Shown here piece by piece: positions 2,480 through 27,398 of a DNA stretch of 64,000 bases (the first letter of the stretch is position 1; each line of letters begins with the position of its first letter). Under the pieces are notes generated by a model. It did not search any database, was not told the DNA's origin, and was given only the letters and a program-made list of their open reading frames with translations. Made by a program: the position numbers and the translations under genes. The DNA is from Patescibacteria group bacterium (lineage in GTDB: Bacteria; Patescibacteriota; Minisyncoccia; Phycocordibacterales; Phycocordibacteraceae), in assembly GCA_018970465.1 (NCBI GenBank), contig JAGWWI010000001.1, forward strand, positions 3,430 to 67,429. Direction: 5' to 3'.

Positions 2480-3994
2480 ATGCCAAGAGACACGGAGCAC
2501 CAGAACATCATGCTCGTGATGGGCGCCTTGATGCTAGTCCTCCTCCTCGCCGCGCTCGACCAGACGATCGTCTCGACCGCCCTGCCGCGGATCGCGAGCG
2601 ATCTCGACGCCTTGAACGAGCTCTCCTGGGTCGTGACCGCCTACCTCCTCACGACCGCAGTCACGACCCCGCTCTACGGCAAGCTCTCCGACCTCTACGG
2701 GCGGAAGCGAATGCTCTCCGCGGCGGTGATCATCTTCCTCATTGGCTCCGCGCTCTCGGGGCTCTCGCAGGGGATCGTCGAGCTCGTCATCTTCCGCGCC
2801 GTGCAGGGCCTCGGCGCGGGCGGGCTCATCTCGCTCGTCTTCGCAGCGGTCGGGGACGTGGTCGCGCCCCGCGAACGCGGGCGCTACCAGGGCTACTTCG
2901 GCGCGGTCTTCGGCCTCGCCTCGGTCGTGGGCCCCTTATTGGGCGGGGTCGCGACCGACTATTTCTCCTGGCGGTGGATCTTCTACATTAATCTCCCGAT
3001 CGGCATCCTCGCCCTCGTTGCGCTCTATCTCCGGCTCCCCGAGCACCAGTACCACCGCCGACACGCGATCGACTACCTCGGCGCGGCGCTCCTCTCTGCG
3101 GCGGTCGTCGCCGTGCTCCTCGTCGCGGTCTGGGGCGGCGTGACCTACCCCTGGGGCTCGCCCGCAATCCTCCTCCTCGCGCTCGGGGGCGCTGCTGCGG
3201 CAGTCGCGTTCGTCGTGACGGAGGCGCGGGCCCTCGAGCCAATTCTCCCGCTCGGGCTCTTCAAGAATCGCATCTTCGCCGTCTCGACGGCGCTCTCGTT
3301 CGTCACCGGTATCGCGATGTTCGCCGCGCTCGTCTACCTGCCCGAATATCAGCAGGTGGTGCGCGGCTATTCGGCGACGAAGTCCGGGCTCCTGATGCTC
3401 CCCTTGATCCTCGGCCTCGTCGGCGCCTCGATCGGCTCGGGCCGCATCATCTCGAAGACGGGGAAGTATCGCTGGTTCCCCATCATTGGGACAATCTTGA
3501 CCGGCTACGGCCTCTGGCTCCTCTCGCACGTGGGCGTCGCGACGCCGCAGACGACGCTCTCGGTCTGGATGTTCATCACGGGCCTCGGGATCGGCTCCTT
3601 CATGCAGGTCTTGACGCTCTCGGTGCAGAACGCCGTTGACCCGCGCGACCTCGGCACCGCGACCGCCTCGGTCGCGTTCTTCCGCACCATCGGCTCGACC
3701 TTGGGCACCGCGGGCCTCGGCGCCTTGCTCGCGAACCGCGTGCAGGAGTATATCGCCGCGCTCCTCCCGGGCGCTGCGGGGCAGGTGAACGTCTCGGGCG
3801 GCTTCTCGACGATCGCGCGGCTCGACCCGGCGGTCGCGCTCCGCGTCACGGAGGCATTCGCGGCGGCATTCCGCGACCTCTTCCTCTGGACCTTGCCCTT
3901 CGCCCTCGCGGCCTTCGTCATCTCCTTCTTCCTCAAAGAAATGCCCTTGCGCGAACGCTCCGAAGAGTACGCGGCAGGGCAGGGATTTGAATAG
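2480..3994 (+). CDS. MFS transporter of the DHA2 (EmrB/QacA-like, 14-TMS) drug:H+ antiporter family.
   Basis: Residues LDQTIVSTALPRIASDL...LYGKLSDLYGRKRML (the MFS motif A region), with about 14 hydrophobic segments and a length typical of DHA2. The start was chosen at the ATG preceded by AGGT and a perfect TATAAT at 2463..2468. An alternative upstream start lies at 2453. Confidence 0.88.
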   Translation: MPRDTEHQNIMLVMGALMLVLLLAALDQTIVSTALPRIASDLDALNELSWVVTAYLLTTAVTTPLYGKLSDLYGRKRMLSAAVIIFLIGSALSGLSQGIVELVIFRAVQGLGAGGLISLVFAAVGDVVAPRERGRYQGYFGAVFGLASVVGPLLGGVATDYFSWRWIFYINLPIGILALVALYLRLPEHQYHRRHAIDYLGAALLSAAVVAVLLVAVWGGVTYPWGSPAILLLALGGAAAAVAFVVTEARALEPILPLGLFKNRIFAVSTALSFVTGIAMFAALVYLPEYQQVVRGYSATKSGLLMLPLILGLVGASIGSGRIISKTGKYRWFPIIGTILTGYGLWLLSHVGVATPQTTLSVWMFITGLGIGSFMQVLTLSVQNAVDPRDLGTATASVAFFRTIGSTLGTAGLGALLANRVQEYIAALLPGAAGQVNVSGGFSTIARLDPAVALRVTEAFAAAFRDLFLWTLPFALAAFVISFFLKEMPLRERSEEYAAGQGFE

Positions 3995-4044: not shown

Positions 4045-4386
4045 TCACGCACGGTGAAACCTTTTGATCGGCCCATCATAGGCGGCCAAGAAGGCTTCCA
4101 TGTCGAACGGCGGCTCCGGCCCTCCAGGCGTACTCTTGTGGTGCCGACAGAGCTTGTAGAGCAGGTCGGCATGGGTGAGGTTGGGGAACAGGTGCTCGAA
4201 GATGTGCATGAAGTTGAGCACGCCGACCATCCACACGGCCATACTAAGCTCTCCTTCGCGGTTATGGCGCTCGTAGTGCGCGCCGACGTGTTCGCGGAAG
4301 TGGGCGATAAGCTGGTCGGCCCCGCGCTGCTCGGCGATCAAGCGGCACCATTCCGCGTGAACAGCTACCGCTCTGTGTTCGTTCAT
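4045..4386 (-). CDS. Hypothetical protein (113 aa, His-rich).
   Basis: Frame-consistent ORF with GC3-rich codon usage. An SD GAAGGGA lies 8 nt upstream, and a TTGCGC-17-TATAAG promoter is on the minus strand at about 4400..4440. No family was recognised. Confidence 0.55.
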   Translation of the reverse strand: MNEHRAVAVHAEWCRLIAEQRGADQLIAHFREHVGAHYERHNREGELSMAVWMVGVLNFMHIFEHLFPNLTHADLLYKLCRHHKSTPGGPEPPFDMEAFLAAYDGPIKRFHRA

Positions 4387-4455
4387 TGATTCGGTCCCTT
4401 CAGTCGGTGATCCTCGACCCTTATACGACAGCGCATACTGGGGCGCAAGCGCAGA

Positions 4456-17425: not shown

Positions 17426-17901
17426 TTATGAATTACTACAAGTCCAAGTATGAGCGGCGGCAGTTCGCGCCGAAGAAGCCGGTGAAGACCTTCCGCGACC
17501 TCGATATCTACCAGAAGACGCTCGAGTGCGCGGTCATCGTGATGAAGAACGTGCGCCCGAAGCTGGCTGCGCTCAAGTATCCGTTCCTGGACGGCATGAC
17601 CGATTGCGCCATGAACGTACCGCTTGCGATAGGCGAGGCGCATTCGATCCGCTTCGCGGACTTCGCGAAGGGACTCGGCCACCTGGAGCGCGCCATGAGC
17701 GGCTGCAACAAGATGATCATCTACCTCGAGCATGCGAAGGGGATGCACGGCGCGAAGGCCGATCCCGACAGCATCATCGACGAGCTCGTCGTGCGGTATG
17801 CCGAGAGCCGTACGAAGAGCTTCCGGCTCGAGCAGTCGTGGAAGAAGTGGCGGCAGGCGGACGCCGCGCTTCCCGCCGCTGCCCGCGCCCCGCGCCTATG
17901 A
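17422..17901 (+). CDS. Four-helix-bundle protein (TIGR02436-like; 23S rRNA intervening-sequence protein / DGR Avd family).
   Basis: The sequence FRDLDIYQKTLECAVIV...NVPLAIGEAHS...GLGHLERAMSGCNKMIIYLEHAKGM fits the FRDL..WQKA / NIAEG / GS..E four-helix pattern. About 160 aa, with ATGA overlaps on both sides. Confidence 0.75.
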   Translation: MIMNYYKSKYERRQFAPKKPVKTFRDLDIYQKTLECAVIVMKNVRPKLAALKYPFLDGMTDCAMNVPLAIGEAHSIRFADFAKGLGHLERAMSGCNKMIIYLEHAKGMHGAKADPDSIIDELVVRYAESRTKSFRLEQSWKKWRQADAALPAAARAPRL

Positions 17902-18149
17902 ACATGACCATGCCGCTCAAAAACCTTTCCGGAGATCGCGCGCGCTGGCGCAAGGTATCCGAGCTCGCGCCGGGCATGCTACTTGCCGTCGCCGCTGACG
18001 AGGTCCTCGCGCGCGCGACGGACGGCGTTGAGGACGCCGTGCTCTGGGACGACATCGTCTCGATCGCGTCGGTCGGGCGCGAGGAGGTGTTCGACATTGA
18101 GGTCGCCGGCACGCGCAACTTCGTCGGCAACGGCATCTACGCCCACAAC
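17898..18149 (+). other. Intein C-terminal splicing segment (blocks F and G), within the CDS.
   Basis: Block F VFDIEVAGTRNF, block G NGIYAHN, and a +1 Thr nucleophile. Confidence 0.7.
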
Positions 18150-19292
18150 ACGTATCTGCCGTCCGCCACCACGCTGCTCACGGTGGGCGGCGCGGCGGTG
18201 GACGCGGCCGCGTACATCGTCCCGGATGAGCCGGTCGTCGTCGAGTCCGGTGATGCGACGACGACCTTGAGTGCGCCGTCCGATGCGCTCGCGCCGGGCG
18301 GCGGCGTCGACCTCTATACGCTCGGACTCCACGACCTGGCGGCAGTCAACGCGCTCGCCGCCGAGGTCGACGCCAATGCCTCCACCACCGCTGCTCAGGG
18401 TACGAGTATCGCTACGCTCCGGTCCTCCCTCGCCGCCCTCCAGGGCGTGAACCTCGACCTCGCGGCCGTCGCGTCCTCCACCCTCGACATCGCGAGCACG
18501 ACAACGCCCTTGGACGCCGCGCAGGCGTTCGCGCAAGGGTTCTTCGGGAGCCTCTTTGCGCATATCACGAGCTGGCTCGCGAATAGCGGGAATGGGATAG
18601 GCAACCTCTTCGCCGCCGTGATCCACACAAACGAGCTCTGCGTCAAGGACGCGGCGGGCGCGGACGTCTGCATCACGGGCGACCAGCTCGCCGCGGCGGT
18701 CTCGGGCGCGGGCGCCGCCGCGCTCCCCGGCGTCACGACCGCCGACACGACCGTCACGAGCCAGAGCTCGACTGGCGCCGCGAGCACCGCCTCCTCCACC
18801 CCCTCCACCTCCACCGACGTCACTCCCCCCGTCGTCACCCTCCTCGGCTCCGCAGCGATGAACATCACCCAGGGCGCCGCCTTCACCGACCCTGGTGCGA
18901 CCGCTACAGACGACACCGACGGCGACCTGACCGCCAAGATCGTCGTCTCGGGCGCCGTCGACCCCGCAACCCCCGGCCTCTACACCCTCACCTACTCAGC
19001 GACCGACGCCGCCGGCAATACCGGCACCGCCTCCCGCGTGGTCACCGTCACCGCTGCAGGCTCCTCCACCCCAGACACCACCGCCTCCTCCACGCCTTCT
19101 GCAAGCACGAGCGGATCCGTCGCCTCCTCCAACACCGCCCCGGCCGACACCTCGACCGCTCCTCCGACGACGAGCACCACTGATACGACGACCGCACCCA
19201 CCCCGACCTCCGCAACCACCGATACCACTACGACGAGTGCAGCGGCGACGACCGATACCACCGCGAGCGCCCCGGCCGCAAGCGGCAATTAA
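17898..19292 (+). CDS. Protein beginning with an intein C-terminal splicing segment (blocks F and G, ...GIYAHN|T). It is followed by an extein with a bacterial Ig-like (DUF5011/Big-like) domain and a Thr/Ser/Pro-rich tail.
   Basis: N-terminus ...VLWDDIVSIASVGREEVFDIEVAGTRNFVGNGIYAHN then T(+1)YLPS.... Downstream, PPVVTLLGSAAMNITQGAAFTDPGATATDDTDGDLTAKIVVSGAVDPATPGLYTLTYSATDAAGNTGTASRVVTV is an Ig-like domain pattern. The gene is in the same frame as the fibre gene. The start is an internal ATG of track ORF 17526..19292. Confidence 0.8.
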   Translation: MNMTMPLKNLSGDRARWRKVSELAPGMLLAVAADEVLARATDGVEDAVLWDDIVSIASVGREEVFDIEVAGTRNFVGNGIYAHNTYLPSATTLLTVGGAAVDAAAYIVPDEPVVVESGDATTTLSAPSDALAPGGGVDLYTLGLHDLAAVNALAAEVDANASTTAAQGTSIATLRSSLAALQGVNLDLAAVASSTLDIASTTTPLDAAQAFAQGFFGSLFAHITSWLANSGNGIGNLFAAVIHTNELCVKDAAGADVCITGDQLAAAVSGAGAAALPGVTTADTTVTSQSSTGAASTASSTPSTSTDVTPPVVTLLGSAAMNITQGAAFTDPGATATDDTDGDLTAKIVVSGAVDPATPGLYTLTYSATDAAGNTGTASRVVTVTAAGSSTPDTTASSTPSASTSGSVASSNTAPADTSTAPPTTSTTDTTTAPTPTSATTDTTTTSAAATTDTTASAPAASGN

Positions 19293-19573: not shown

Positions 19574-20116
19574 ATGCTTAGCCGGTACGACATACGAGGC
19601 AGGGTGGGCGTTTTTATCGACGCGGCGAATATTTTTTACTCGCAGCGCACGCTCGGGTGGCGTATCGACTTTGGCAGGCTCGCCGGGTATCTGAAAGGGG
19701 AGATCGATATAAAGGGCATGTACTATTACACCGGCAAAGTCGGCGCGCTCGCAAAGCAAGTATCCTTTCTCCAGAAGCTGCAATCTCTCGGCTACGAGGT
19801 AACTGCGAAAGAGGTGAAGTTCATAAAAACCGGCGGCGGTGCCCAGATCCCCAAGGGCAATCTTGATGTGGAACTCGCGCTCGATGCCTTCAGGCTCAAA
19901 GAGAATTTCGACGTATTTTTGCTGTTCTCGGGTGATTCAGACTTCGCGTATCTCATCGACCTTCTGAAACAGGCAGGGAAGCGCGTGTTCGTCCTCTCGA
20001 CGCGCGGCCATGTCTCGAAGGAACTGCTTGATCGCGCGAAGTATATAGATCTGCGGCGGCTCAGGGCCTTCGCGGAAAAGATCAAGGGGCCGGACGAGCC
20101 GGCCCCTGAGGTCTGA
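19574..20116 (+). CDS. NYN-domain (LabA/DUF88-like) putative RNase.
   Basis: GVFIDAANIFYS (N-terminal Asp), DVELALDAF, and LLFSGDSDFAYLIDLLKQAGKRVFV: the NYN/PIN-like acidic residues in the canonical order. Confidence 0.75.
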   Translation: MLSRYDIRGRVGVFIDAANIFYSQRTLGWRIDFGRLAGYLKGEIDIKGMYYYTGKVGALAKQVSFLQKLQSLGYEVTAKEVKFIKTGGGAQIPKGNLDVELALDAFRLKENFDVFLLFSGDSDFAYLIDLLKQAGKRVFVLSTRGHVSKELLDRAKYIDLRRLRAFAEKIKGPDEPAPEV

Positions 20117-20130
20117 CACAGCCACTATAT

Positions 20131-20586
20131 ATGACCCATTCTAAACGTCAAGTGAATAGCGGCCGGCTCGTGAGGCAGAGCCTCGCGGCGAAGCGTTTCT
20201 CCCTTTTTCTCCCTTTCTTCCTCTTCCTCCCGCTGCTCCCCCTTTCTACCCTTTTCCTTTTCCCCGCCGAAGCGCACGCCTCCGCCTTCACCCGCCCGCC
20301 GAACAATTTGGGCCTCGTCGGCTACTGGAATTTCGACGAAGGCTCGGGCACCGTCGCGCACGACCGCTCGGGGCAGGGCAACAACGGCACGCTCGTCAAT
20401 GCGCCGACGTGGGTGAAAGGGAAGGTGAACGGGGCGCTGTCGTTCAATGGGACGAATCAGTGTGTCGATGCGGGCAATGCCTCGTCGCTCAATGTGAGCG
20501 CCGCCACCGGCATGGCAGCCTGCGCTTGGTTATATCTGAATTCATACAGCTCCAGTACAGCTCTACAAGCTCGGGCATTGATATGA
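20131..20586 (+). pseudogene. Truncated LamG/ConA-like surface-protein gene. It keeps the N-terminal signal/TM and the first about 60% of one LamG domain, and is disrupted downstream by an AT-rich insertion carrying hicBA.
   Basis: It starts MTHSKRQVNSG..., like the intact paralog at 21840. It then reads AHASAFTRPPNNLGLVGYWNFDEGSG...ALSFNGTNQ, diverging at ...LNSY into an AT-rich sequence and a stop. The 5' DNA is nearly identical to the start of the 21840 gene. Confidence 0.6.
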
Positions 20587-20639
20587 GAAAAGTGGAAAGT
20601 AAGAAGTATAAAGAAGAAAGTATGGAGAAAAAAGAATCG

Positions 20640-20843
20640 CTACAAATCCCTCGACGAGAGTCCGCTCTGTTTCAAAATCGATCGCAGCGTGCTCTCGGGC
20701 AGATCTCCCGTGTGCATCGGGACGGTGACGCGCCGCTTGTCGTGCTCCCGATAGTAGATGCGGTGACTGCCTTTTTGCCTTTGGAATATGTATCCTTCCC
20801 GCTCAAGCGCGCGGCACAAAGTGCGGGCCGAAACGCCGGCCAT
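20640..20843 (-). CDS. hicA: HicA-family mRNA interferase toxin (type II TA).
   Basis: The 67-aa product LCRALEREGYIFQRQKGSHRIYYREHDKRRVTVPMHTGDLPESTLRSILKQSGL matches the YcfA/HicA consensus (GSH..., tvPhH...l..gtlrsIlkq). Confidence 0.8.
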   Translation of the reverse strand: MAGVSARTLCRALEREGYIFQRQKGSHRIYYREHDKRRVTVPMHTGDLPESTLRSILKQSGLSSRDL

Positions 20844-20846
20844 ATA

Positions 20847-21080
20847 CTATCGGGCAATTCCCACCTCGATGCTTCCCAGGAGCGTCGTGTCGGCTTCGGG
20901 CGCTTTTTCACCCGCTGCCTCCATGTCTTCCAAATACAGTTCGATCGCCTCGCGCGCCATCGCGCGCGCCTCGTTCATGTCGGCGCCGTAGGTGACGCAG
21001 CCAGGAAGCGCAGGCACCGTAACGGTGTACCCGCCTTGCGGATCGGATTCGAAGACAAGCTGGAAGGTCTGTTTGGTCAT
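20847..21080 (-). CDS. hicB: HicB-family antitoxin (UPF0150 fold).
   Basis: The 77-aa product FQLVFESDPQGGYTVTVPALPGCVTYGADMNEARAMAREAIELYLEDM matches the HicB N-terminal domain pattern (y.v.ie...gGy.a.vP.LpGc.t.G.t.eEa...EAi). It lies immediately upstream of hicA. Confidence 0.75.
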   Translation of the reverse strand: MTKQTFQLVFESDPQGGYTVTVPALPGCVTYGADMNEARAMAREAIELYLEDMEAAGEKAPEADTTLLGSIEVGIAR

Positions 21081-21116
21081 GGCAGCAGTATAGCAAATCG
21101 TGAGGCAGTAGAAAGT

Positions 21117-21371
21117 ATGAAGTATAAAGGGCTCAAGAGAGCGCTGCTTTGCGCGTCTCCCTTTATGCTTGCTACCTTATTCTTGCTTCCTCCGCTCGCG
21201 CACGCGAGCGTCCTCACCCGCCCGGCCAACAATTTGGGCCTCGTGGGGTACTGGCAATTCAACGAAGGCTCGGGCTCGCTCGCGCACGACACCTCTGGTG
21301 CTGGCAACACGGGTACGCTCGTCGGTTCGCCGAGCTGGGTGGCGGGGAAGGTGGGCGGAGCGATAGTATGA
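21117..21371 (+). pseudogene. N-terminal fragment of a LamG-repeat surface protein (signal peptide plus about 55 aa of LamG domain), truncated where the mazF-like gene begins.
   Basis: The product MKYKGLKRALLCASPFMLATLFLLPPLAHASVLTRPANNLGLVGYWQFNEGSGSLAHDTSGAGNTGTLVGSPSWVAGKVGGAIV reaches a stop 1 nt before the MazF-like ATG. Confidence 0.55.
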
Positions 21372-21372
21372 C

Positions 21373-21816
21373 ATGAGTATGCGAAAAGATTTCGATACAT
21401 GGAATGGAGAGAAGAAGCGCATCAACGAGCACGACACGGGCGCACTCTATTTCTACGAGCGTGAGATCTGGTGGTGTTCTCTTGGAGTGAACGTGGGCTT
21501 CGAGCAGGATGGGACGAATGAGCTATTCCAGCGCCCTGTCGTGATACTGAAAAAGTACAATCCGCAGATTTTTCTCGCTCTGCCGCTCTCGACGACATCC
21601 AAGCGCGGAAGCTATTATTGGCCGGTGGGCATCGTGGACGGTGAACAAGCCGTCGCGATACTCTCGCAGTTGCGCCTTTTGGATTCTAAACGACTGACGA
21701 ATCGCATCGGCATACTCGGCAAAAAGGAATTCGATCTTCTCGTCGGGGAAACCGTCGCCGCGAATTTCCCCACCTTAAAAAGTTCTCCCCCGCCGGGAGG
21801 CGGGGGCAAGCCGTGA
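21373..21816 (+). CDS. MazF/PemK/Kid-family toxin-like endoribonuclease with no adjacent antitoxin.
   Basis: The sequence EREIWWCSLGVNVGFEQDGTNELFQRPVVIL...LALPLSTTSKRG...AVAILSQLRLLDSKRLTNRIGIL aligns with the Kid/PemK blocks GEIW.v.l....G.EQ.G.RPvlIv / vP.Ts / R..D..R. Lower GC than the flanks. Confidence 0.7.
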   Translation: MSMRKDFDTWNGEKKRINEHDTGALYFYEREIWWCSLGVNVGFEQDGTNELFQRPVVILKKYNPQIFLALPLSTTSKRGSYYWPVGIVDGEQAVAILSQLRLLDSKRLTNRIGILGKKEFDLLVGETVAANFPTLKSSPPPGGGGKP

Positions 21817-21839
21817 GGCCGTTTGTGACTAGAGTATAT

Positions 21840-24029
21840 ATGACCCATTCTGAACGTCAAGTGAATAGCGGAAAAATCACGAGGCTAAGCCTCCTGAAAC
21901 ACCTCTTTCCCCCCGTTCTTCTCGTTGCCGCCCTTTTCTTGCTGCCTGCTTCGGCGCACGCGAGCGTCCTCACCCGCCCCGCCAACAATCTCGGCCTCGT
22001 CGGCTACTGGCAGTTCAACGAAGGCTCGGGCTCGCTCGCGCATGATGTTTCGGGTAACGGTGTTGCCGGCGTAGTCGTCAATGGCCCCGCCACCTGGACG
22101 ACGGGGAAGTTTGGCAGCGCGCTGTTACTAAGCTCGGCATCCAATCAACAGGTGCAGGCAACCTCGACTAAGGCCGTTCAATTTTCTACGACGCAGTGCG
22201 CGTGGATAAAACTCAATTCATACAATGGCGGCAATTTCGCCGGAGTGGCAGGCACCGGCGCGGGCGGAACAATCCTCACGACAAGATCATCGAATGCGAC
22301 ATTCGGCGCGTCGATACAAATCGCAAATTTTCACTTGTCGGCAAACAAAGCGGTGTTTATCTACAATACAGCCGGCACTGCGGTGGGCGCGGCGGGTAAC
22401 ACGACCATCGCCCTCAATACGTGGTATTTCATATGCGGTACATTTTCATACACCGGCGGCGGCGGAAACTTCGACGGCAATTGGCAAGTCTATGTGAATG
22501 GAGTCGAAGACGATTCGAGCGCGAATAATTACCTTGCGGCTGGCGGCAATCCCAGTTTCCCCATGAACGGCACCACCTGGAACATAGCCGGTATAGATGG
22601 CGCGATCGACGACGTCCGCATCTACAACCGCGCGCTATCGGCGGCGGACGTCCTGAAGCTCTACCAGCTCGGCACGACGCAAGTGAAGGCGACCCTCGGC
22701 ACCGCGCCCATCGTCCTCACCCCCACCGCCGGCATCGGCAGCGGGCTCGTGGGGTACTGGCCATTCAACGAAGGAACGGGCAACACCACCGCCGACATTT
22801 CCGGCAACAAGAACACCGGTACGCTCGTCAATGCGCCGAGCTGGGTGAAGGGGAAGTATGGGAATGCGCTGTCGTTCAATGGGACGAATTATATTTCTCT
22901 GGGAAATGTAGCGGCACTCAGTTTCCCGAGCACCGACTTCGGCATATGCGCATGGGCCTACCCGATCGAGAACAGCAATTACAGGGAGATAGTCAACAAG
23001 GGAGATAGCGGATCTGCCAGCGGTTCGCAGTATGAAGTACTTTTGGATAACTCGGGGAAGTACGCGTTTAATGTCATGGTGGGAGGTGTTGTTGATCGGC
23101 TGGCCGATACAGCGACCGCTTCTTTAAATAAGTGGGCTTACGTATGCGGTGTTCGCCAAGGGGCGCTCAATTCGCTTTATGTAAACGGTATTTTAAGGAA
23201 TTCGGCATCTTTTAGCGGACCGCTGAACACCACATCGAACGGTGTGAGTATAGGAGCCGCGGGCAACGGAAACACAAGCCTTGCTTTTAGGGGCACCATC
23301 GACGAAGTGCGCATCTACAACAGAGCACTTTCATCAAGCGAAGTGAAGCAGCTCTATCTCGACGAGAGCGTGCAGATCGGGCACAGCAACGCGGTCGTCT
23401 CGAACGGCCTCGTGGGCTGGTGGACCATGGACGGCAATAATTTGATCCAGAACGTGAAGGATTCGAGCGGGCAGGGGAATAACGGCTCCCTCGTCGGCTT
23501 CTCCGCCACCTCCTCGGCCGAAGTCGCGGGCAAAATCGGCGGGGCTTTGAAGTTTAATGGGACGAGTCAGTATATTACTGTCCCAGACACCACCGCGTTG
23601 CGGCTGTCGGGTAATTATTCTGTATCGGTTTGGATCAGGCCCGCAGCTCTAAAAGACTACGGAAACGTGCTTTTTAAAGAATCCCTAATAAGCAATACGG
23701 GCTATGGTCTCATCACCTTCGCAAACGGCTCGTGGGGATGGCAGATCGGCAATACGCTAGATATACAAACCTCCGCCGCGTTGCTAAAGAATACTACCTG
23801 GTCTCTTCTCATCGCGACGTATGACGGAACCAACGTACGTCTCTACCAGAACGGATCGCTCCTTTCGACCACCGTGGCTTCGGCAGTGGCGAGCGATGCG
23901 ACGGCTCTCGCCCTCGGCGCTGATACTGGCGACGGGAGATATTTTAACGGCACTATCGACGACGTCCGCGTCTACAACCGCGCCCTTTCGGCGAGCGAGA
24001 TCCAGGCGCTCTATGCGGCGGGGAGGTAA
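21840..24029 (+). CDS. Secreted surface protein with three LamG/ConA-like (Laminin_G_3-type) domains.
   Basis: Signal peptide ...LLPASAHA|SV. Three repeats run from GLVGYW.FNEG.G....D.SGN.N.G.L...P.W..GK.G.AL.FNG to ...IDDVRIYNRALSAAEV/SSEV..LY. The start is an ATG 27 nt inside track ORF 21813..24029, so that it does not overlap the mazF-like stop. Confidence 0.85.
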   Translation: MTHSERQVNSGKITRLSLLKHLFPPVLLVAALFLLPASAHASVLTRPANNLGLVGYWQFNEGSGSLAHDVSGNGVAGVVVNGPATWTTGKFGSALLLSSASNQQVQATSTKAVQFSTTQCAWIKLNSYNGGNFAGVAGTGAGGTILTTRSSNATFGASIQIANFHLSANKAVFIYNTAGTAVGAAGNTTIALNTWYFICGTFSYTGGGGNFDGNWQVYVNGVEDDSSANNYLAAGGNPSFPMNGTTWNIAGIDGAIDDVRIYNRALSAADVLKLYQLGTTQVKATLGTAPIVLTPTAGIGSGLVGYWPFNEGTGNTTADISGNKNTGTLVNAPSWVKGKYGNALSFNGTNYISLGNVAALSFPSTDFGICAWAYPIENSNYREIVNKGDSGSASGSQYEVLLDNSGKYAFNVMVGGVVDRLADTATASLNKWAYVCGVRQGALNSLYVNGILRNSASFSGPLNTTSNGVSIGAAGNGNTSLAFRGTIDEVRIYNRALSSSEVKQLYLDESVQIGHSNAVVSNGLVGWWTMDGNNLIQNVKDSSGQGNNGSLVGFSATSSAEVAGKIGGALKFNGTSQYITVPDTTALRLSGNYSVSVWIRPAALKDYGNVLFKESLISNTGYGLITFANGSWGWQIGNTLDIQTSAALLKNTTWSLLIATYDGTNVRLYQNGSLLSTTVASAVASDATALALGADTGDGRYFNGTIDDVRVYNRALSASEIQALYAAGR

Positions 24030-24044
24030 TATGAAGACTGTCGT

Positions 24045-26867
24045 ATGACGCTCAAGCAATCGCACGCTCCCGAAGGCTACAAGCAGCTGCTCGCATACCA
24101 GAAGGCGGAGCGGCTGCAGGAGGCGTGCGCGGCGTTCACGTCCCGTTTCTCCCATTTTTCCCATTCGCCCCATTTCCGCACCCTGATGGCGCTCGCGGAT
24201 CAGATGGACCGCTCCGCCCGCTCGGTGAAGCAGAACATCGTGGAGGGGTGGAAGAGGAATTCGACGAAGGAATACTACGACTTCCTCGGATTCTCGATCG
24301 GCGCGAACGCGGAGCTGCAGGAGGATTGCGACGACATCATCAAGGGCCGGTATGAAATGGGAGGAAAAGGGTTGAAAAGGGAAGAATGGGAGGAAGGGGA
24401 GAAATGGGATATCGAAAGGGTAGAAAAGCTGCCCTTTTACCCCCTTGATTCCCATTTGCCCCTTTTGATCCAGCTCCGGCTGCGCTGCAAAGAATTGAAT
24501 TTCCTGCTCGACAAACTGCAGAAATCTCTCGCCGAGAAGATGCGCGAGGATCACACCCTTTCCGGCGCCGATCGGTTCAACGCGGCTCGCCGCGCGCAAG
24601 CGGAAGAGGATAAGTGGTTTGCAAAAAGTTTGGAGGAGCAAGGGCTCACGCGGCTCTCCAACGGGCAGGTCGTAACAAAGGGAGAAAAGGGTAACAAAGG
24701 GGAGAAAGGAAGCGTCCGCCTTTCCCTTTTTCTCCTATTTTCCCCCTTCCTCCTTTTTTCCTTTTTGCTGCTTCCCGCGCCCGCAGAGGCCGCGCTCACC
24801 CGCCCGCCCAACAACCTCGGCCTCGTCGGCTACTGGCCTTTCGACGAAGGCAGCGGCTCGACTGCGTACGACCGAAGCGGCTTCGGCAACAACGGGACGC
24901 TCGTGAATTCGCCCGCGTGGACGGTGGGGAAGCTGGGCGGGGCACTGAGCTTCAATGGGACGAATCAATACACCACGACGGGAACCACGAGTTTCCCCAC
25001 AGGTTCGTCCGCGCGATCCGTCTTCGCTTGGATTTATGTAGCGGGTTCTACGGGCAACGAGCAAGACGTGTTCTCGTACGGAAACGGCGGAACCACCGTT
25101 CAAGCTTCCAATTTCGGCATGCAAGCTTCGGGGCTCAAGCTCTTTTTTTCGTCTTGGGGATCGGGAAGCGCAACTTTTAACAGCAGTCTTTCCGTGACTA
25201 CTGGCACGTGGCATTTCGTCGGGTATACCCTCACGAGCTCCGGCACCGCCACGCTCTATTTGGATGGAACCTCCGCTCAAGCTACGGGCATGAGCGTTGG
25301 TACGGTCATACCGGCGGTATCGGACGCATCCGTCATAGGATCTGGGCCGAATGGCCAGGAATCTGGCAGATACTTCGACGGTAAGATAGACGACGTCCGC
25401 ATCTACAACCGTGCGCTCTCCGCCGCAGACGTGGCCCGCCTCTACCAGCTCGGCACCGCGGTCGCGGGGCCAACGAAGATCACGAGCCCCACCACCTTCC
25501 TCACCAACGGCCTCGTCGGCTACTGGACTTTCGACGGCAAGAATATGGTCAACAACGTCGCCGACAGCTCCGGCAACGGCAATAACGGCTCGCTCGTCGG
25601 CTTCACCTCGACCACGACCGCCGAGACGCTCGGCAAGATCGGCCAGGCGCTGAATTTTAATGGGACGAATCAGTATGTGCTCGTGCCTGACGCACCAAGT
25701 ATCCGTCTCTCGAACAAGTTCAGCATTTCTTTTTGGTTCAAGACAGCGAACCTTGCTCAAACCAATACCTATATCATGTCGCGCAACAACTCCACGGGCG
25801 GTACTCAAAGTTCCATTATTTTTGGATTCGTGCCGAGTACCATTGAATTCTACGCCTCAGGCTTTAGTGGCTCGGATCCCCGGACCGGTTCTCAAATCAG
25901 CATCTCCGATACCAGATGGCATCAGGTGACCTACACCTACGATGGAACGACGTGGAGTGGCTATCGTGACGGTCAACAGATATTTTCCACCAGCCGCACA
26001 TTTTCGCTCAGTACCGCTTCGCTTGATGGGTGGTACATCGGCTCGGCCAATACATTTGCAAATTTTATCAAGGCGTCACTCGACGACGTCCGCATCTACA
26101 ACCGCGCGCTCTCGGCGAGCGAGGTGCAGGAGCTCTACAACGCCACCGGCGGCGCGCCCACCATTACGCCCGCGGCCGTCGCGGCTGCGGGCCCCGCGCC
26201 CGGGAACCTCGTCGGCTACTGGACATTCAACAACAAGGACATGAACTGGCAGACCGGCATCGCGCTCGACAAGAGCGGCCAAGGCAACAACGGCACGCTC
26301 ATCAACATGAGCACGACGACTTCGCCGGTGGAAGGCAAGGTGGGGCAGGCGCTCAAGTTCAACGGGACGAGTCAGTATGTCAAAGTTTCGAATGGCACGA
26401 TAGTGAAAACGCTTCCCAACTCGTCAATCTCAGCGTGGATAAAAGTCGCGGGAACAGTCGGATCGACCGCTCAAACTATTTACAGTGAAAATGAGCCCCT
26501 GGGAGTCGATTACGGTCTTCTTGTTGAAGGCAGCGGCAACAACGGTTGCGGCGCCAGTACCGCGGGCAGGGCTTCTTTTTATATGGCCAACGGTTCTGAC
26601 CACAACGCCTGCACGACGACGCGTGTCGACGACGGGAAATGGCATTATTTGGTTGCGACGTACTCTGGTGGTTCTGCGATGAACATATACCTCGACGGAG
26701 TATTGAGCGGCTCTGGCACGGGTAGTGCAGCTGCGAGTGCTGCGGCCTCCTACGTCGGCAGGTCCGGGCAGGGAGTCTATTTCAACGGCACCATCGACGA
26801 CGTCCGCATCTACAACACCGCGCTCACGGCCGCGCAGGTCTTGCAGCTCTACAACGCGACGAAGTGA
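24045..26867 (+). CDS. Fusion ORF: an N-terminal four-helix-bundle (TIGR02436/Avd-family) domain, a low-complexity linker and TM, then a LamG/ConA-like surface protein with about 4 LamG domains. It may instead be two genes, with the LamG part starting at an internal ATG near 24538.
   Basis: Residues 1-about 150 read LAYQKAERLQEACAAFTSRF...RSARSVKQNIVEGWKRNSTKEYYDFLGFSIGANAELQEDCDD...LIQLRLRCKELNFLLDKL, a four-helix-bundle pattern. Then comes a TM LFLLFSPFLLFSFLLLPAPAEA|ALTRPPNNLGLVGYW and repeated LamG units ending ...IDDVRIYNRALSA.EV. A 5-codon uORF (ATG 24031 ... TGA) overlaps the start as ATGA. Confidence 0.75.
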   Translation: MTLKQSHAPEGYKQLLAYQKAERLQEACAAFTSRFSHFSHSPHFRTLMALADQMDRSARSVKQNIVEGWKRNSTKEYYDFLGFSIGANAELQEDCDDIIKGRYEMGGKGLKREEWEEGEKWDIERVEKLPFYPLDSHLPLLIQLRLRCKELNFLLDKLQKSLAEKMREDHTLSGADRFNAARRAQAEEDKWFAKSLEEQGLTRLSNGQVVTKGEKGNKGEKGSVRLSLFLLFSPFLLFSFLLLPAPAEAALTRPPNNLGLVGYWPFDEGSGSTAYDRSGFGNNGTLVNSPAWTVGKLGGALSFNGTNQYTTTGTTSFPTGSSARSVFAWIYVAGSTGNEQDVFSYGNGGTTVQASNFGMQASGLKLFFSSWGSGSATFNSSLSVTTGTWHFVGYTLTSSGTATLYLDGTSAQATGMSVGTVIPAVSDASVIGSGPNGQESGRYFDGKIDDVRIYNRALSAADVARLYQLGTAVAGPTKITSPTTFLTNGLVGYWTFDGKNMVNNVADSSGNGNNGSLVGFTSTTTAETLGKIGQALNFNGTNQYVLVPDAPSIRLSNKFSISFWFKTANLAQTNTYIMSRNNSTGGTQSSIIFGFVPSTIEFYASGFSGSDPRTGSQISISDTRWHQVTYTYDGTTWSGYRDGQQIFSTSRTFSLSTASLDGWYIGSANTFANFIKASLDDVRIYNRALSASEVQELYNATGGAPTITPAAVAAAGPAPGNLVGYWTFNNKDMNWQTGIALDKSGQGNNGTLINMSTTTSPVEGKVGQALKFNGTSQYVKVSNGTIVKTLPNSSISAWIKVAGTVGSTAQTIYSENEPLGVDYGLLVEGSGNNGCGASTAGRASFYMANGSDHNACTTTRVDDGKWHYLVATYSGGSAMNIYLDGVLSGSGTGSAAASAAASYVGRSGQGVYFNGTIDDVRIYNTALTAAQVLQLYNATK

Positions 26868-26868
26868 T

Positions 26869-27327
26869 ATGGGAAAGGAGTTTGACCGATGGAATGCGGA
26901 GAAAAAGAAAGCGGATCGCGAAGCGCCGCGACTATACACTGTTCGCGAGATGTGGTGGTGTCGGCTGGGCGTCAATGTGGGTACGGAACAGGACGGCAGC
27001 GGGGAGAAGTTTCTCCGGCCGGTTGTCATCCTGCGCGGATTCGCTGCCGACGCTTGTCTGGTCGTCCCGCTCACCACTTCGCAGCGCGGGCATCGCTTGC
27101 GCGTTTCCGTAGGCATTGTCGACGGGAAGCGGACGCTGGCCAACCTTTCGCAGATTCGCGTCGTCGATACTCGACGACTGGTAGAAAAGATAGGCTTCCT
27201 CGATAATGGATATTTTCGAATTGCGAAAAGCCGCTCACAGTCTCGTGTGAGCGGCCCTGCGAACATTCTCCCCTTTGCAGGGGTGAGGCCGAAGCCAACT
27301 ATGGCTCCCATCATAGGAGCGCCATAG
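26869..27327 (+). CDS. MazF/PemK/Kid-family toxin-like protein, paralog of 21373..21816, with no adjacent antitoxin.
   Basis: MGKEFDRWNAEKKKADREAPRLYTVREMWWCRLGVNVGTEQDGSGEKFLRPVVILRG...LVVPLTTSQRG...LANLSQIRVVDTRRLVEKIGFL shows the same block structure as the first copy. Its ATG lies 1 nt after the LamG gene stop. Confidence 0.7.
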   Translation: MGKEFDRWNAEKKKADREAPRLYTVREMWWCRLGVNVGTEQDGSGEKFLRPVVILRGFAADACLVVPLTTSQRGHRLRVSVGIVDGKRTLANLSQIRVVDTRRLVEKIGFLDNGYFRIAKSRSQSRVSGPANILPFAGVRPKPTMAPIIGAP

Positions 27328-27398
27328 TAAAAGTCAAGTGAATATCACCATCCCGGTCCCCGCTACCCGGCGGGCCGGTAGCGTATCATGGAGGGCAT

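Follow-up and report, generated by a model that had tools for sequence, protein, structure and literature searches.

MazF/PemK-like toxin genes at two sites in the window

The window analyzed here is a stretch of 64,000 nucleotides (nt) from a Patescibacteria group bacterium (contig JAGWWI010000001.1), and window coordinates count from its first nucleotide. It contains two MazF/PemK-like toxin genes, mazF-1 and mazF-2, and, reading toward the 3′ end of each from the opposite strand, a predicted small RNA (sRNA) gene. mazF-1 (21379..21816, plus strand) encodes 145 amino acids (aa) from the second ATG of an open reading frame (ORF) that opens at 21373 (147 aa). mazF-2 (26869..27327, plus strand) encodes 152 aa and was assigned from PF02452, a family alignment, and its sequence. 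The stop codons of the LamG genes upstream end at 21371 and 26867, and the ATGs of the mazF ORFs lie at 21373 and 26869. The original prediction for this DNA, two MazF/PemK paralogs abutting LamG stops, was borne out: the Pfam PemK_toxin model PF02452 (cutoff, 23.1 bits) matched the mazF-1 product with 32.2 bits (E 1.3e-7) and the mazF-2 product with 41.6 bits (E 1.6e-10). The two proteins are 45% identical across 120 aa. The start of mazF-1 had been placed at 21373, where the ORF does open, but the likely start is the second ATG at 21379, because translation from there matches with 100% identity a 145-aa NCBI protein that comes from a Patescibacteria group bacterium and carries the annotation PemK/MazF toxin, and because the homologous junction in the related locus L001 agrees. 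NCBIfam has no specific model for MazF-1 or MazF-2, and a PADLOC defense-system scan left the MazF-like proteins unmatched.

The family profile aligns with the Bacillus subtilis MazF structures 4mdx and 4me7 (E ~2e-6). The family-invariant R54-P55 falls on R25-P26 of B. subtilis MazF, and S73 (MazF-1) or T (MazF-2) falls on T48; R25 and T48 are the catalytic residues of that enzyme. Structure prediction, which had been proposed as a check on these residues, gave a MazF fold: the AlphaFold (AF2) model of the MazF-like toxin has a predicted local distance difference test score (pLDDT) of 76, and the top 50 Foldseek matches in the PDB are all MazF/MoxT/YdcE-family toxin chains (probability 1.0; target-normalized template modeling score ≤0.76). 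Members of the subfamily are soluble MazF-fold proteins of 127 to 150 aa with an extra N-terminal helix carrying invariant K5, W10, and K14. All 16 residues at the invariant alignment columns of the subfamily are kept in both window copies. The earlier suggestion of a retired toxin is thus unlikely, since the family-invariant residues, including R54 and Ser/Thr73, are intact. MazF-1 and MazF-2 are, by sequence, intact members of the MazF/PemK-fold family, and ribonuclease (RNase) activity and toxicity are predicted for both.

The subfamily is large, with at least 1,270 clusters (50% identity, E ≤ 1e-10), and a relative is encoded at 482 of the 600 sites that matched a pattern in GTDB species representatives. 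The loci retrieved come overwhelmingly from Patescibacteria, with a few from Verrucomicrobiota, Hyphomicrobium, and Bacteroidia.

A conserved element convergent with the toxin genes

The sample comprised 80 species-representative genomes or loci (GTDB representatives) plus close relatives (loci with L numbers here). When the sequence downstream of 89 family members was printed, a conserved element of ~100 nt appeared behind almost all of them, read on the strand opposite mazF. In order, it comprises a −35 box, TTGAC(a/t); a spacer of 16 to 18 nt, often with TG before the −10 box; a −10 box, TAnnnT; ~7 nt; and a leader, (u)ACAAAUGG, with the consensus uACAAAUGG (pattern A[C/U]A..GG). Then follow a first hairpin (H1), with a 3-base-pair stem and a cUUCGg loop (UUCG or similar, including GNRA), the trinucleotide CUC, and a second hairpin (H2), which is GC rich and variable in sequence and has GCAA, GAAA, or UUCG loops. 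The 3′ end is AGAAC plus a U run; many loci have in its place another hairpin, which encloses the toxin stop codon between flanking A and U runs. The stop codon then lies in the 3′ arm of a covarying hairpin (for example, aaaGCCGTCA…TGACGGCttt), as in L034 (~4370-4410) and L048 (~4360-4400). To judge from its sequence, this hairpin, found in many loci and at 27226-27255 of the window, looks like a bidirectional terminator common to the toxin mRNA and the sRNA.

By nhmmer, the element lies 1 to 46 nt past the toxin stop in almost every locus retrieved, and 90 of 90 matches are antisense to mazF. Because MAFFT alone misaligned the variable H2 stem, a covariance model (R1) was built from 16 copies with uniform stem and loop lengths, and the remaining copies were realigned to it. 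Over 639 kb, R1 gave 57 matches at E < 0.01. All were antisense to mazF, and all lay directly downstream of a toxin gene save two extra copies (L072:4600-4645 and L054:3892-3936). The strict promoter pattern TTGACN-N16-18-TANNNT was correctly placed in 68 of 83 copies (0.7 expected), and a looser pattern was found in 80 of 85, with an extended −10 TG in 39. Pairing in the R1-fitted alignment extended to 99% of cells and collapsed in slid registers. Changes on both sides of a stem pair were found in 44 cells versus 13.5 in shuffles, a level reached by 0 of 500 shuffles, and the middle pair of H1 flips from G-C to C-G (38:18).

On the antisense strand the loops read UUCG in H1 (60 copies) and GCAA, GAAA, or UUCG in H2 (53 copies), and folding was more stable on that strand in 63 of 84 copies (Wilcoxon P = 8e-6). 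The opposite-strand promoter, the loop identities, and the folding energy ruled out a plus-strand element of the 3′ untranslated region (3′ UTR) in place of an antisense gene; G-U counts in minimum-free-energy folds did not discriminate between the strands of the element. Sequence conservation marks the leader and H1, whose A and G positions do not vary among 61 copies; in H2 the pairing alone is kept. The predicted sRNAs start at a median of 51 nt past the toxin stop and have a median length of 53 nt (interquartile range, 49 to 79); 44 of 65 overlap the toxin ORF. These sequence data make it very likely that the convergent sRNA gene is real. In Rfam 15, whether searched at gathering thresholds or at E ≤ 5 to 10 (window plus 20 + 8 loci), no family matched the element, not even the pemK motif RF02913, and the sRNA family is, as far as checked, uncatalogued.

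Predicted sRNA genes of the window

Predicted sRNA-1 (~50 nt; 21777..21826, minus strand) is based on an R1 match, a terminator-like site, and near-identical orthologous copies. Its promoter (21833..21860, minus strand) consists of TTGACG, a 16-nt spacer, and TATACT (10 of 12 matches in a promoter scan). The predicted RNA has the leader ACAAACGG, H1 as GCC-UCAC-GGC, H2 as CCCCCGCC-UCCC-GGCGGGGG, and then AGAACUUUUU; the H1 loop holds the mazF-1 stop codon on the opposite strand. R1 matched 21783-21819(−) with 14.6 bits (E 0.09 for the whole window), and a terminator-like hairpin lies at 21806-21787(−). The variant H1 is common to the orthologous loci L001, L003, and L100, which hold near-identical copies. 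Sister loci have GAAA or GCAA loops in H1 and compensatory and G-U changes in H2.

Predicted sRNA-2 (~77 nt; 27226..27302, minus strand) was matched by both R1 and nhmmer. Its promoter (27310..27337, minus strand) reads TTGACT, a 16-nt spacer, and TATGAT, again with 10 of 12 scan matches. The parts are the leader AUAGUUGG, H1 as GGC-UUCG-GCC (27296-27287), H2 as CCCCU-GCAA-AGGGG (27283-27270), and a terminator hairpin (27255-27230) followed by UUUU. The R1 match (27260-27305, minus strand) scored 52.2 bits with a copy that was among the 16 training sequences of R1; independent support came from nhmmer (E 1.1e-6) with a seed that did not contain this copy. Over the 64-kb window, R1 reached E < 1 only at the sRNA-1 and sRNA-2 sites, the remaining matches being two 10-nt GCCUUCGGGC hairpins (E 6.5). 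In a promoter scan of 8.1 kb, the top three sites were on the minus strand at 27337-27310, 21860-21833, and 20151-20124.

The sRNA genes leave traces in the toxin reading frames. Family members mostly stop ahead of the sRNA gene. The last ~13 codons of MazF-1 (KSSPPPGGGGKP) are the sRNA-1 hairpins read antisense, and the C-terminal ~27 residues of MazF-2 are read-through over the whole sRNA-2 gene, the customary stop position inside the terminator hairpin being out of frame. Translation across an antisense sRNA gene therefore accounts for two tails, the conserved SPPP..GGGKP one of MazF-1 and the 27-residue one of MazF-2.

Extra copies of the sRNA gene stand without an intact toxin in L033 (3621-3811), L072 (4599-4682), L042 (3296-3390), and L054 (3890-3954). 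In L033 an internally deleted mazF relic, with the N-terminal 20 residues fused to the C terminus, retains the sRNA, and in L072 the copy is a second, tandem one. An intact toxin gene with a readable flank and without the element was not seen in the retrieved loci. An sRNA without a toxin yet no intact toxin without an sRNA is the asymmetry expected of an antitoxin.

Search for a protein or repeat antitoxin

The earlier observation that no MazE/PemI-like gene accompanies the toxins held up: ORFs of ≥25 aa on both strands around both mazF genes matched no Pfam family at E ≤ 0.1. Clustering of ORFs of ≥40 aa within 800 nt, in any frame, yielded no recurrent protein family across ~80 loci. A small protein antitoxin was ruled out by the lack of Pfam matches and of a recurrent neighboring family, and for the same reasons the loci lack the adjacent, co-oriented small antitoxin gene of a type II module. 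No ToxI-like tandem repeats were found near the toxin; the element is single copy, downstream, and convergent. Pairing of the sRNA with the ribosome-binding region of the toxin mRNA was also rejected, cognate pairs being no better than noncognate ones (P = 0.48).

The identity, distance, and orientation of the proteins flanking mazF were likewise unconserved in ~80 loci; the sRNA alone is constant. In about one-quarter of loci, mazF starts ≤25 nt from an unrelated upstream gene on the same strand, and such short gaps suggest either cotranscription or insertion at gene ends. It had been proposed that neutralization of these toxins, if any, would be noncanonical. That view was right, and it overlooked the convergent sRNA gene at the 3′ end of each toxin gene, with which the two are probably not orphans.

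Homologous toxins on Campylobacterota plasmids

A tblastn search of plasmids for homologues of the MazF subfamily found genes annotated as PemK/MazF toxins in Campylobacter, Helicobacter, and Nitratiruptor. In Campylobacter jejuni 81-176, the pVir PemK/MazF gene (old tag pVir0047; NC_008770.1, 30634-31038, plus strand) encodes a protein, matched by tblastn at 34% identity (E 5e-11), with an N-terminal FDxWNxxKK helix. The sRNA CJpv3 of the pVir minus strand (31119->31043; 77 nt; orientation '><>') was detected by Northern blotting (Dugar et al. 2013, PMC3656092, Table S12). CJpv3 is convergent with the PemK/MazF gene, ends 5 nt past the toxin stop, and is preceded by an extended −10 box, TGaTATAAT. 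On pVir, a type I system, cjrA/cjpT, is reported, in which CjrA is an antisense sRNA antitoxin (PMC10470494, PMC7826846). Plausibly, cjrA may be CJpv3 and cjpT the pVir PemK-like gene.

The pVir pair resembles the window modules in that the toxin belongs to the same MazF subfamily and the convergent sRNA has its own promoter and, at 77 nt, the length predicted for sRNA-2. It differs in that the CJpv3 sequence has no detectable homology to the element, its leader is longer, and the pair resides on a conjugative plasmid in an epsilonproteobacterium that has been cultured. Loci in Nitratiruptor and Helicobacter are laid out like that of pVir, and the Nitratiruptor RNA begins with AUAAAU followed by a hairpin. 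R1 found nothing significant in the Campylobacter, Helicobacter, and Nitratiruptor loci; its best match at the correct site scored 7.2 bits (E 3.9).

A second convergent sRNA of C. jejuni 81-176, CJpt4 on pTet (40999->40919, minus strand; 81 nt; '><>'), is also Northern validated (PMC3656092, Table S12). It sits between the hypothetical gene pTet0047 and tetO, and CJpt4 and pTet0047 might be an analogous toxin/sRNA pair.

Proposed mechanism and alternatives

Considered together, the sequence data suggest a module of two parts, in which each MazF-like gene supplies the toxin and the other part would be an sRNA, not a protein. The sRNA gene would sit at the toxin stop codon or shortly beyond it, with a sigma-70 promoter of its own directing transcription toward the toxin, and would yield an RNA of ~50 to 80 nt with full complementarity to the toxin mRNA at its 3′ end or in its 3′ UTR. 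That it serves as the antitoxin, by whatever route, is probable. For the route itself we favor, tentatively and with somewhat less than an even chance of being correct, a type I-like, cis-antisense control of the toxin mRNA: the sRNA would pair with the toxin transcript and lead to its decay or silencing, and the collision of converging transcription may contribute. This route is favored because the layout matches that of convergent type I systems. As a sequence-level prediction, a cis antisense RNA with its own promoter overlaps the toxin transcript, as in type I systems; the toxin is not the small hydrophobic peptide of such systems.

Several points weigh against this interpretation. The alignment behind the pair counts was fitted to the R1 model itself, and sRNA-1 scores weakly in R1 (14.6 bits, E 0.09) because its H1 differs. 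The link to the Campylobacterota sRNAs is one of architecture and protein homology (34% identity), not of RNA homology. About one-third of loci have a predicted sRNA that goes no further than the stop codon; pairing there would need read-through of the toxin transcript. Cis-antisense pairing alone also gives no reason for very divergent lineages to keep the sequence of the leader and H1 while H2 is free to vary.

That last point is what a type III-like reading would account for, in which the sRNA neutralizes the MazF-like protein by direct binding, as a decoy or pseudosubstrate, and the single-stranded leader uACAAAU with the adjacent UUCG hairpin is a protein recognition element. We regard this as rather unlikely. 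RNA inhibits toxins of the ToxN type, which have a Kid/MazF-like fold. Cis-antisense pairing does not call for conserved leader and H1 sequences (61 copies) beside an H2 in which pairing alone is conserved; the toxin protein is unusually conserved, with its 16 invariant columns; and the sRNA shows no pairing signal at the cognate translation initiation region. The leader also resembles the UACAU and ACA sites of characterized MazFs. Against this reading, the RNA is single copy, downstream, and convergent and lacks the tandem repeats that lie upstream in ToxI; the toxin falls in PF02452 rather than ToxN/AbiQ; and the reported Campylobacter system is classed as type I. Were direct binding nevertheless the route, which we consider unlikely, Patescibacteria at large would have a hitherto unrecognized class of module in which a MazF RNase is checked by a single-copy, convergent, structured sRNA. 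The uACAAAU leader and cUUCGg hairpin would then be a pseudosubstrate, and this mode of protein-RNA antitoxin action would fall under neither type I nor type III. The NYN RNases of these genomes may use a like arrangement, and part of the long-noted excess of solo toxins would then be explained.

The remaining explanations are each unlikely. It is improbable that the sRNA gene is real but insulates or terminates transcription or regulates the downstream gene (here LamG), with the MazF-like RNase tolerated as narrowly specific or weakly expressed. The overlap of the sRNA promoters with the 5′ ends of LamG ORFs at 20131 and 21840 fits such a role, as do the many loci where the toxin stop lies in an A/U-run-flanked hairpin resembling a bidirectional terminator. 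Against it, the element follows the toxin whatever the downstream gene or its orientation, and the sRNA copies persist without a toxin while no intact toxin without the element was seen. A DNA-level role, as a recombination site or the terminus of a mobile cassette (with hairpins that a Y1/IS200-type transposase would recognize) and with incidental promoter hexamers, is very improbable. It would draw on the rearranged state of the region, on the frequent position of the module directly past the stop codon of unrelated genes, and on L003, where a Y1 (IS200-like) transposase gene (3194-3853) directly precedes mazF. But a Y1 gene is nearby in only 1 of ~90 loci, conservation of the −35 and −10 boxes, of their spacing, and of how far they lie from the hairpins greatly exceeds background, UUCG and GNRA loops stabilize RNA specifically, and the homologous Campylobacter region is transcribed.

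Equally remote is a protein antitoxin encoded elsewhere in the genome, of which the window covers 64 kb. There is precedent in the solitary MazF-mx of Myxococcus xanthus, whose antitoxin MrpC is encoded elsewhere (PMC2701414). MazF-mx is, like the toxins here, a MazF homologue without an adjacent protein antitoxin; unlike it, they have a linked conserved RNA gene, so that no trans-acting protein needs to be invoked, and a trans-acting protein would leave that universally linked gene unexplained. Nothing MazE-like is present in the window, and its hicBA pair (described below) is self-contained.

We likewise see scant chance that the genes are true orphan toxins tied to LamG, either neutralized by the LamG protein or acting as RNases that control surface protein expression. 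The tight junction between LamG stop and mazF start occurs three times in the window (once as a relic) and once in another genome. However, a LamG-type neighbor of mazF is found in 2 of the 80 species-representative loci and absent from 78, so the functional toxin-LamG link originally envisaged is unsupported. LamG adjacency does recur, but in one related genome only, GCA_016207185.1 (L001/L002); upstream of or flanking mazF in other close relatives are murD/murI (mur operon), Fic, Y1 transposase, or TraG-like genes, and in L100 the stop of a Fic-domain gene (1061-1927) is overlapped 4 nt by mazF. One of the two upstream "LamG" genes is an 84-aa relic, and the LamG proteins have signal peptides and would be exported. 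The neighborhoods in relatives ruled out a general coupling of the toxin to LamG, and the adjacency looks like co-duplication in a variable island rather than functional coupling. As an antitoxin candidate, the convergent sRNA far surpasses the LamG protein.

LamG genes and the low-GC island

The toxin genes lie in an island (19.5 to 27.4 kb) with a GC content of 0.54 to 0.59, compared with 0.65 to 0.70 in the flanks. This low-GC block, with its NYN gene, hicBA, two mazF genes, and LamG paralogs, suggests an island, variable or gained by horizontal transfer, in which toxins and surface proteins abound; in the proposed scheme, the LamG genes would be neighbors co-duplicated with the module there and not its partners. 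The first gene of the island encodes an NYN (PIN-like) RNase (19574-20116, plus strand). It is followed on the same strand by an internally deleted LamG gene (20131-20586), whose end holds a relic LamG/TGA/ATG junction. A full LamG gene (about 21840/21861-24029, plus strand) lies between mazF-1 and the 940-aa ORF described below.

A gene or fragment encoding LamG had been reported upstream of each toxin gene. This is correct at both sites, with the qualification that the one at mazF-1, LamG relic B (21117..21371, plus strand; 84 aa), is an N-terminal relic comprising a signal peptide and the first ~55 residues of the LamG domain, followed by a stop. The relic keeps the ancestral junction '..TGAGTATG' to mazF-1 (repeat families D1/D2; junction alignment with L001). 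The ORF that abuts mazF-2 by its 3′ end (24045..26867, plus strand; 940 aa; Pfam PF05635 and PF13385, TIGR02436) begins with a four-helix bundle of the 23S rRNA intervening sequence (IVS) family and continues in frame with a signal peptide and three LamG domains. Probably it represents either two genes that have no stop between them or a fused gene; between its two parts lie purine-rich imperfect repeats and an inverted repeat (24376-24409/24733-24766).

A third junction between a LamG 3′ end and a mazF start survives as a relic (CAGCTCTACAAGCTCGGGCATTGAtATGAGAAA) at 20558..20590 (plus strand), in a direct repeat (D16) with 26844-26876. Beyond it, the mazF body is replaced by a minus-strand hicBA cassette (20640-21080; hicA/hicB pair, Pfam E 1.6e-20 and 1.2e-12), which stands exactly where the mazF body is missing, as if one toxin cassette had replaced another. 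The cassette is bracketed by 23-nt direct repeats that are 91% identical (20591-20613 and 21107-21129). The junction "...TGA(1-2 nt)ATG" thus occurs at mazF-2, at the relic, at mazF-1 (as ATGAGTATG), and in GCA_016207185.1; from this recurrence, the LamG-mazF unit was duplicated and then eroded by recombination among LamG repeats. The pairing of LamG and mazF, for which a check in related genomes had been proposed, is present in L001/L002 and missing from the other close relatives. The N terminus MTHSxRQVNSG, which two LamG ORFs share, results from reading the sRNA promoter on the opposite strand (repeats D12-D14).

Outside the island, the translation of an ORF at 17526-19292 (plus strand) contains an intein-like C-terminal block (…EEVFDIEVAGTRNFVGNGIYAHNT) at ~17900-18200, and beyond it Thr/Ser/Ala-rich low-complexity sequence and a possible Ig-like repeat.

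A convergent mini-gene at the NYN RNase gene

The third promoter from the scan belongs to a convergent mini-gene linked to the NYN gene (20075..20151, minus strand; promoter 20151-20124, TTGACG-N16-TATAGT; hairpin and U tail, 20107-20075). It lies at or inside the 3′ end of the NYN gene, with a terminator-like hairpin at 20107-20085 in the scan. It shares a 59-nt repeat (D13) with 21835-21893 and is similar to an sRNA gene, but it lacks hairpin H1. An NYN gene is found downstream of mazF in L100-L102, and the one in L100 (2551-3093, plus strand), beside the mazF orthologue, has a mini-gene at ~3060-3135 (minus strand) with TTGACT-N16-TATCAT and a terminator. The NYN gene and its convergent mini-gene may, from their sequences, be a second module of an RNase plus an antisense sRNA.

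Comparison with known systems and implications

In the B. subtilis type I systems bsrG/SR4 and txpA/RatA, the genes converge, their 3′ ends overlap, and the antitoxin has its own promoter and terminator. The toxin and RNA genes described here also converge and overlap at their 3′ ends; the B. subtilis toxins, however, are small hydrophobic peptides, whereas here the toxin is a MazF-fold RNase of ~130 aa and the sRNA has a sequence-conserved leader and hairpin. With type III systems (ToxIN, CptIN, and TenpIN) the modules share the pairing of a Kid/MazF-like-fold RNase toxin with an RNA instead of a protein. They differ from them in that the type III antitoxin consists of upstream, same-strand tandem repeats processed by the toxin, while the RNA here is single copy, downstream, and convergent, and in that the toxin is PF02452 and not ToxN/AbiQ. 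With the MazEF, PemIK, and Kid-Kis type II systems they share toxin family, fold, and catalytic residues, but they lack a MazE/PemI gene and have the extra N-terminal helix (K5, W10, and K14). The pemK RNA motif RF02913 is, like the element, a structured RNA linked to pemK genes; the element is unmatched by it. RNA-antitoxin modules are already known as a kind, with one likely relative studied in Campylobacter.

The picture of an orphan toxin fused to LamG is largely replaced by that of a MazF-family toxin with a linked convergent sRNA that, from its sequence and layout, is probably its antitoxin. The sRNA gene and its promoter explain the C-terminal tails of the toxins and the supposed N termini of LamG ORFs as by-products. 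More than half of the toxin homologues in the largest families appear "solo" (PMC2701414), and one large solo MazF subfamily carries a linked structured sRNA gene that is invisible to protein-based annotation and absent from Rfam. The homologues of the same architecture on plasmids of culturable Campylobacter, Helicobacter, and Nitratiruptor offer an experimental handle. If the RNA is the antitoxin, annotation of the genes of this subfamily as type II toxins would be misleading, and RNA-controlled MazF toxins would be common in Patescibacteria, which are reduced, episymbiotic bacteria.

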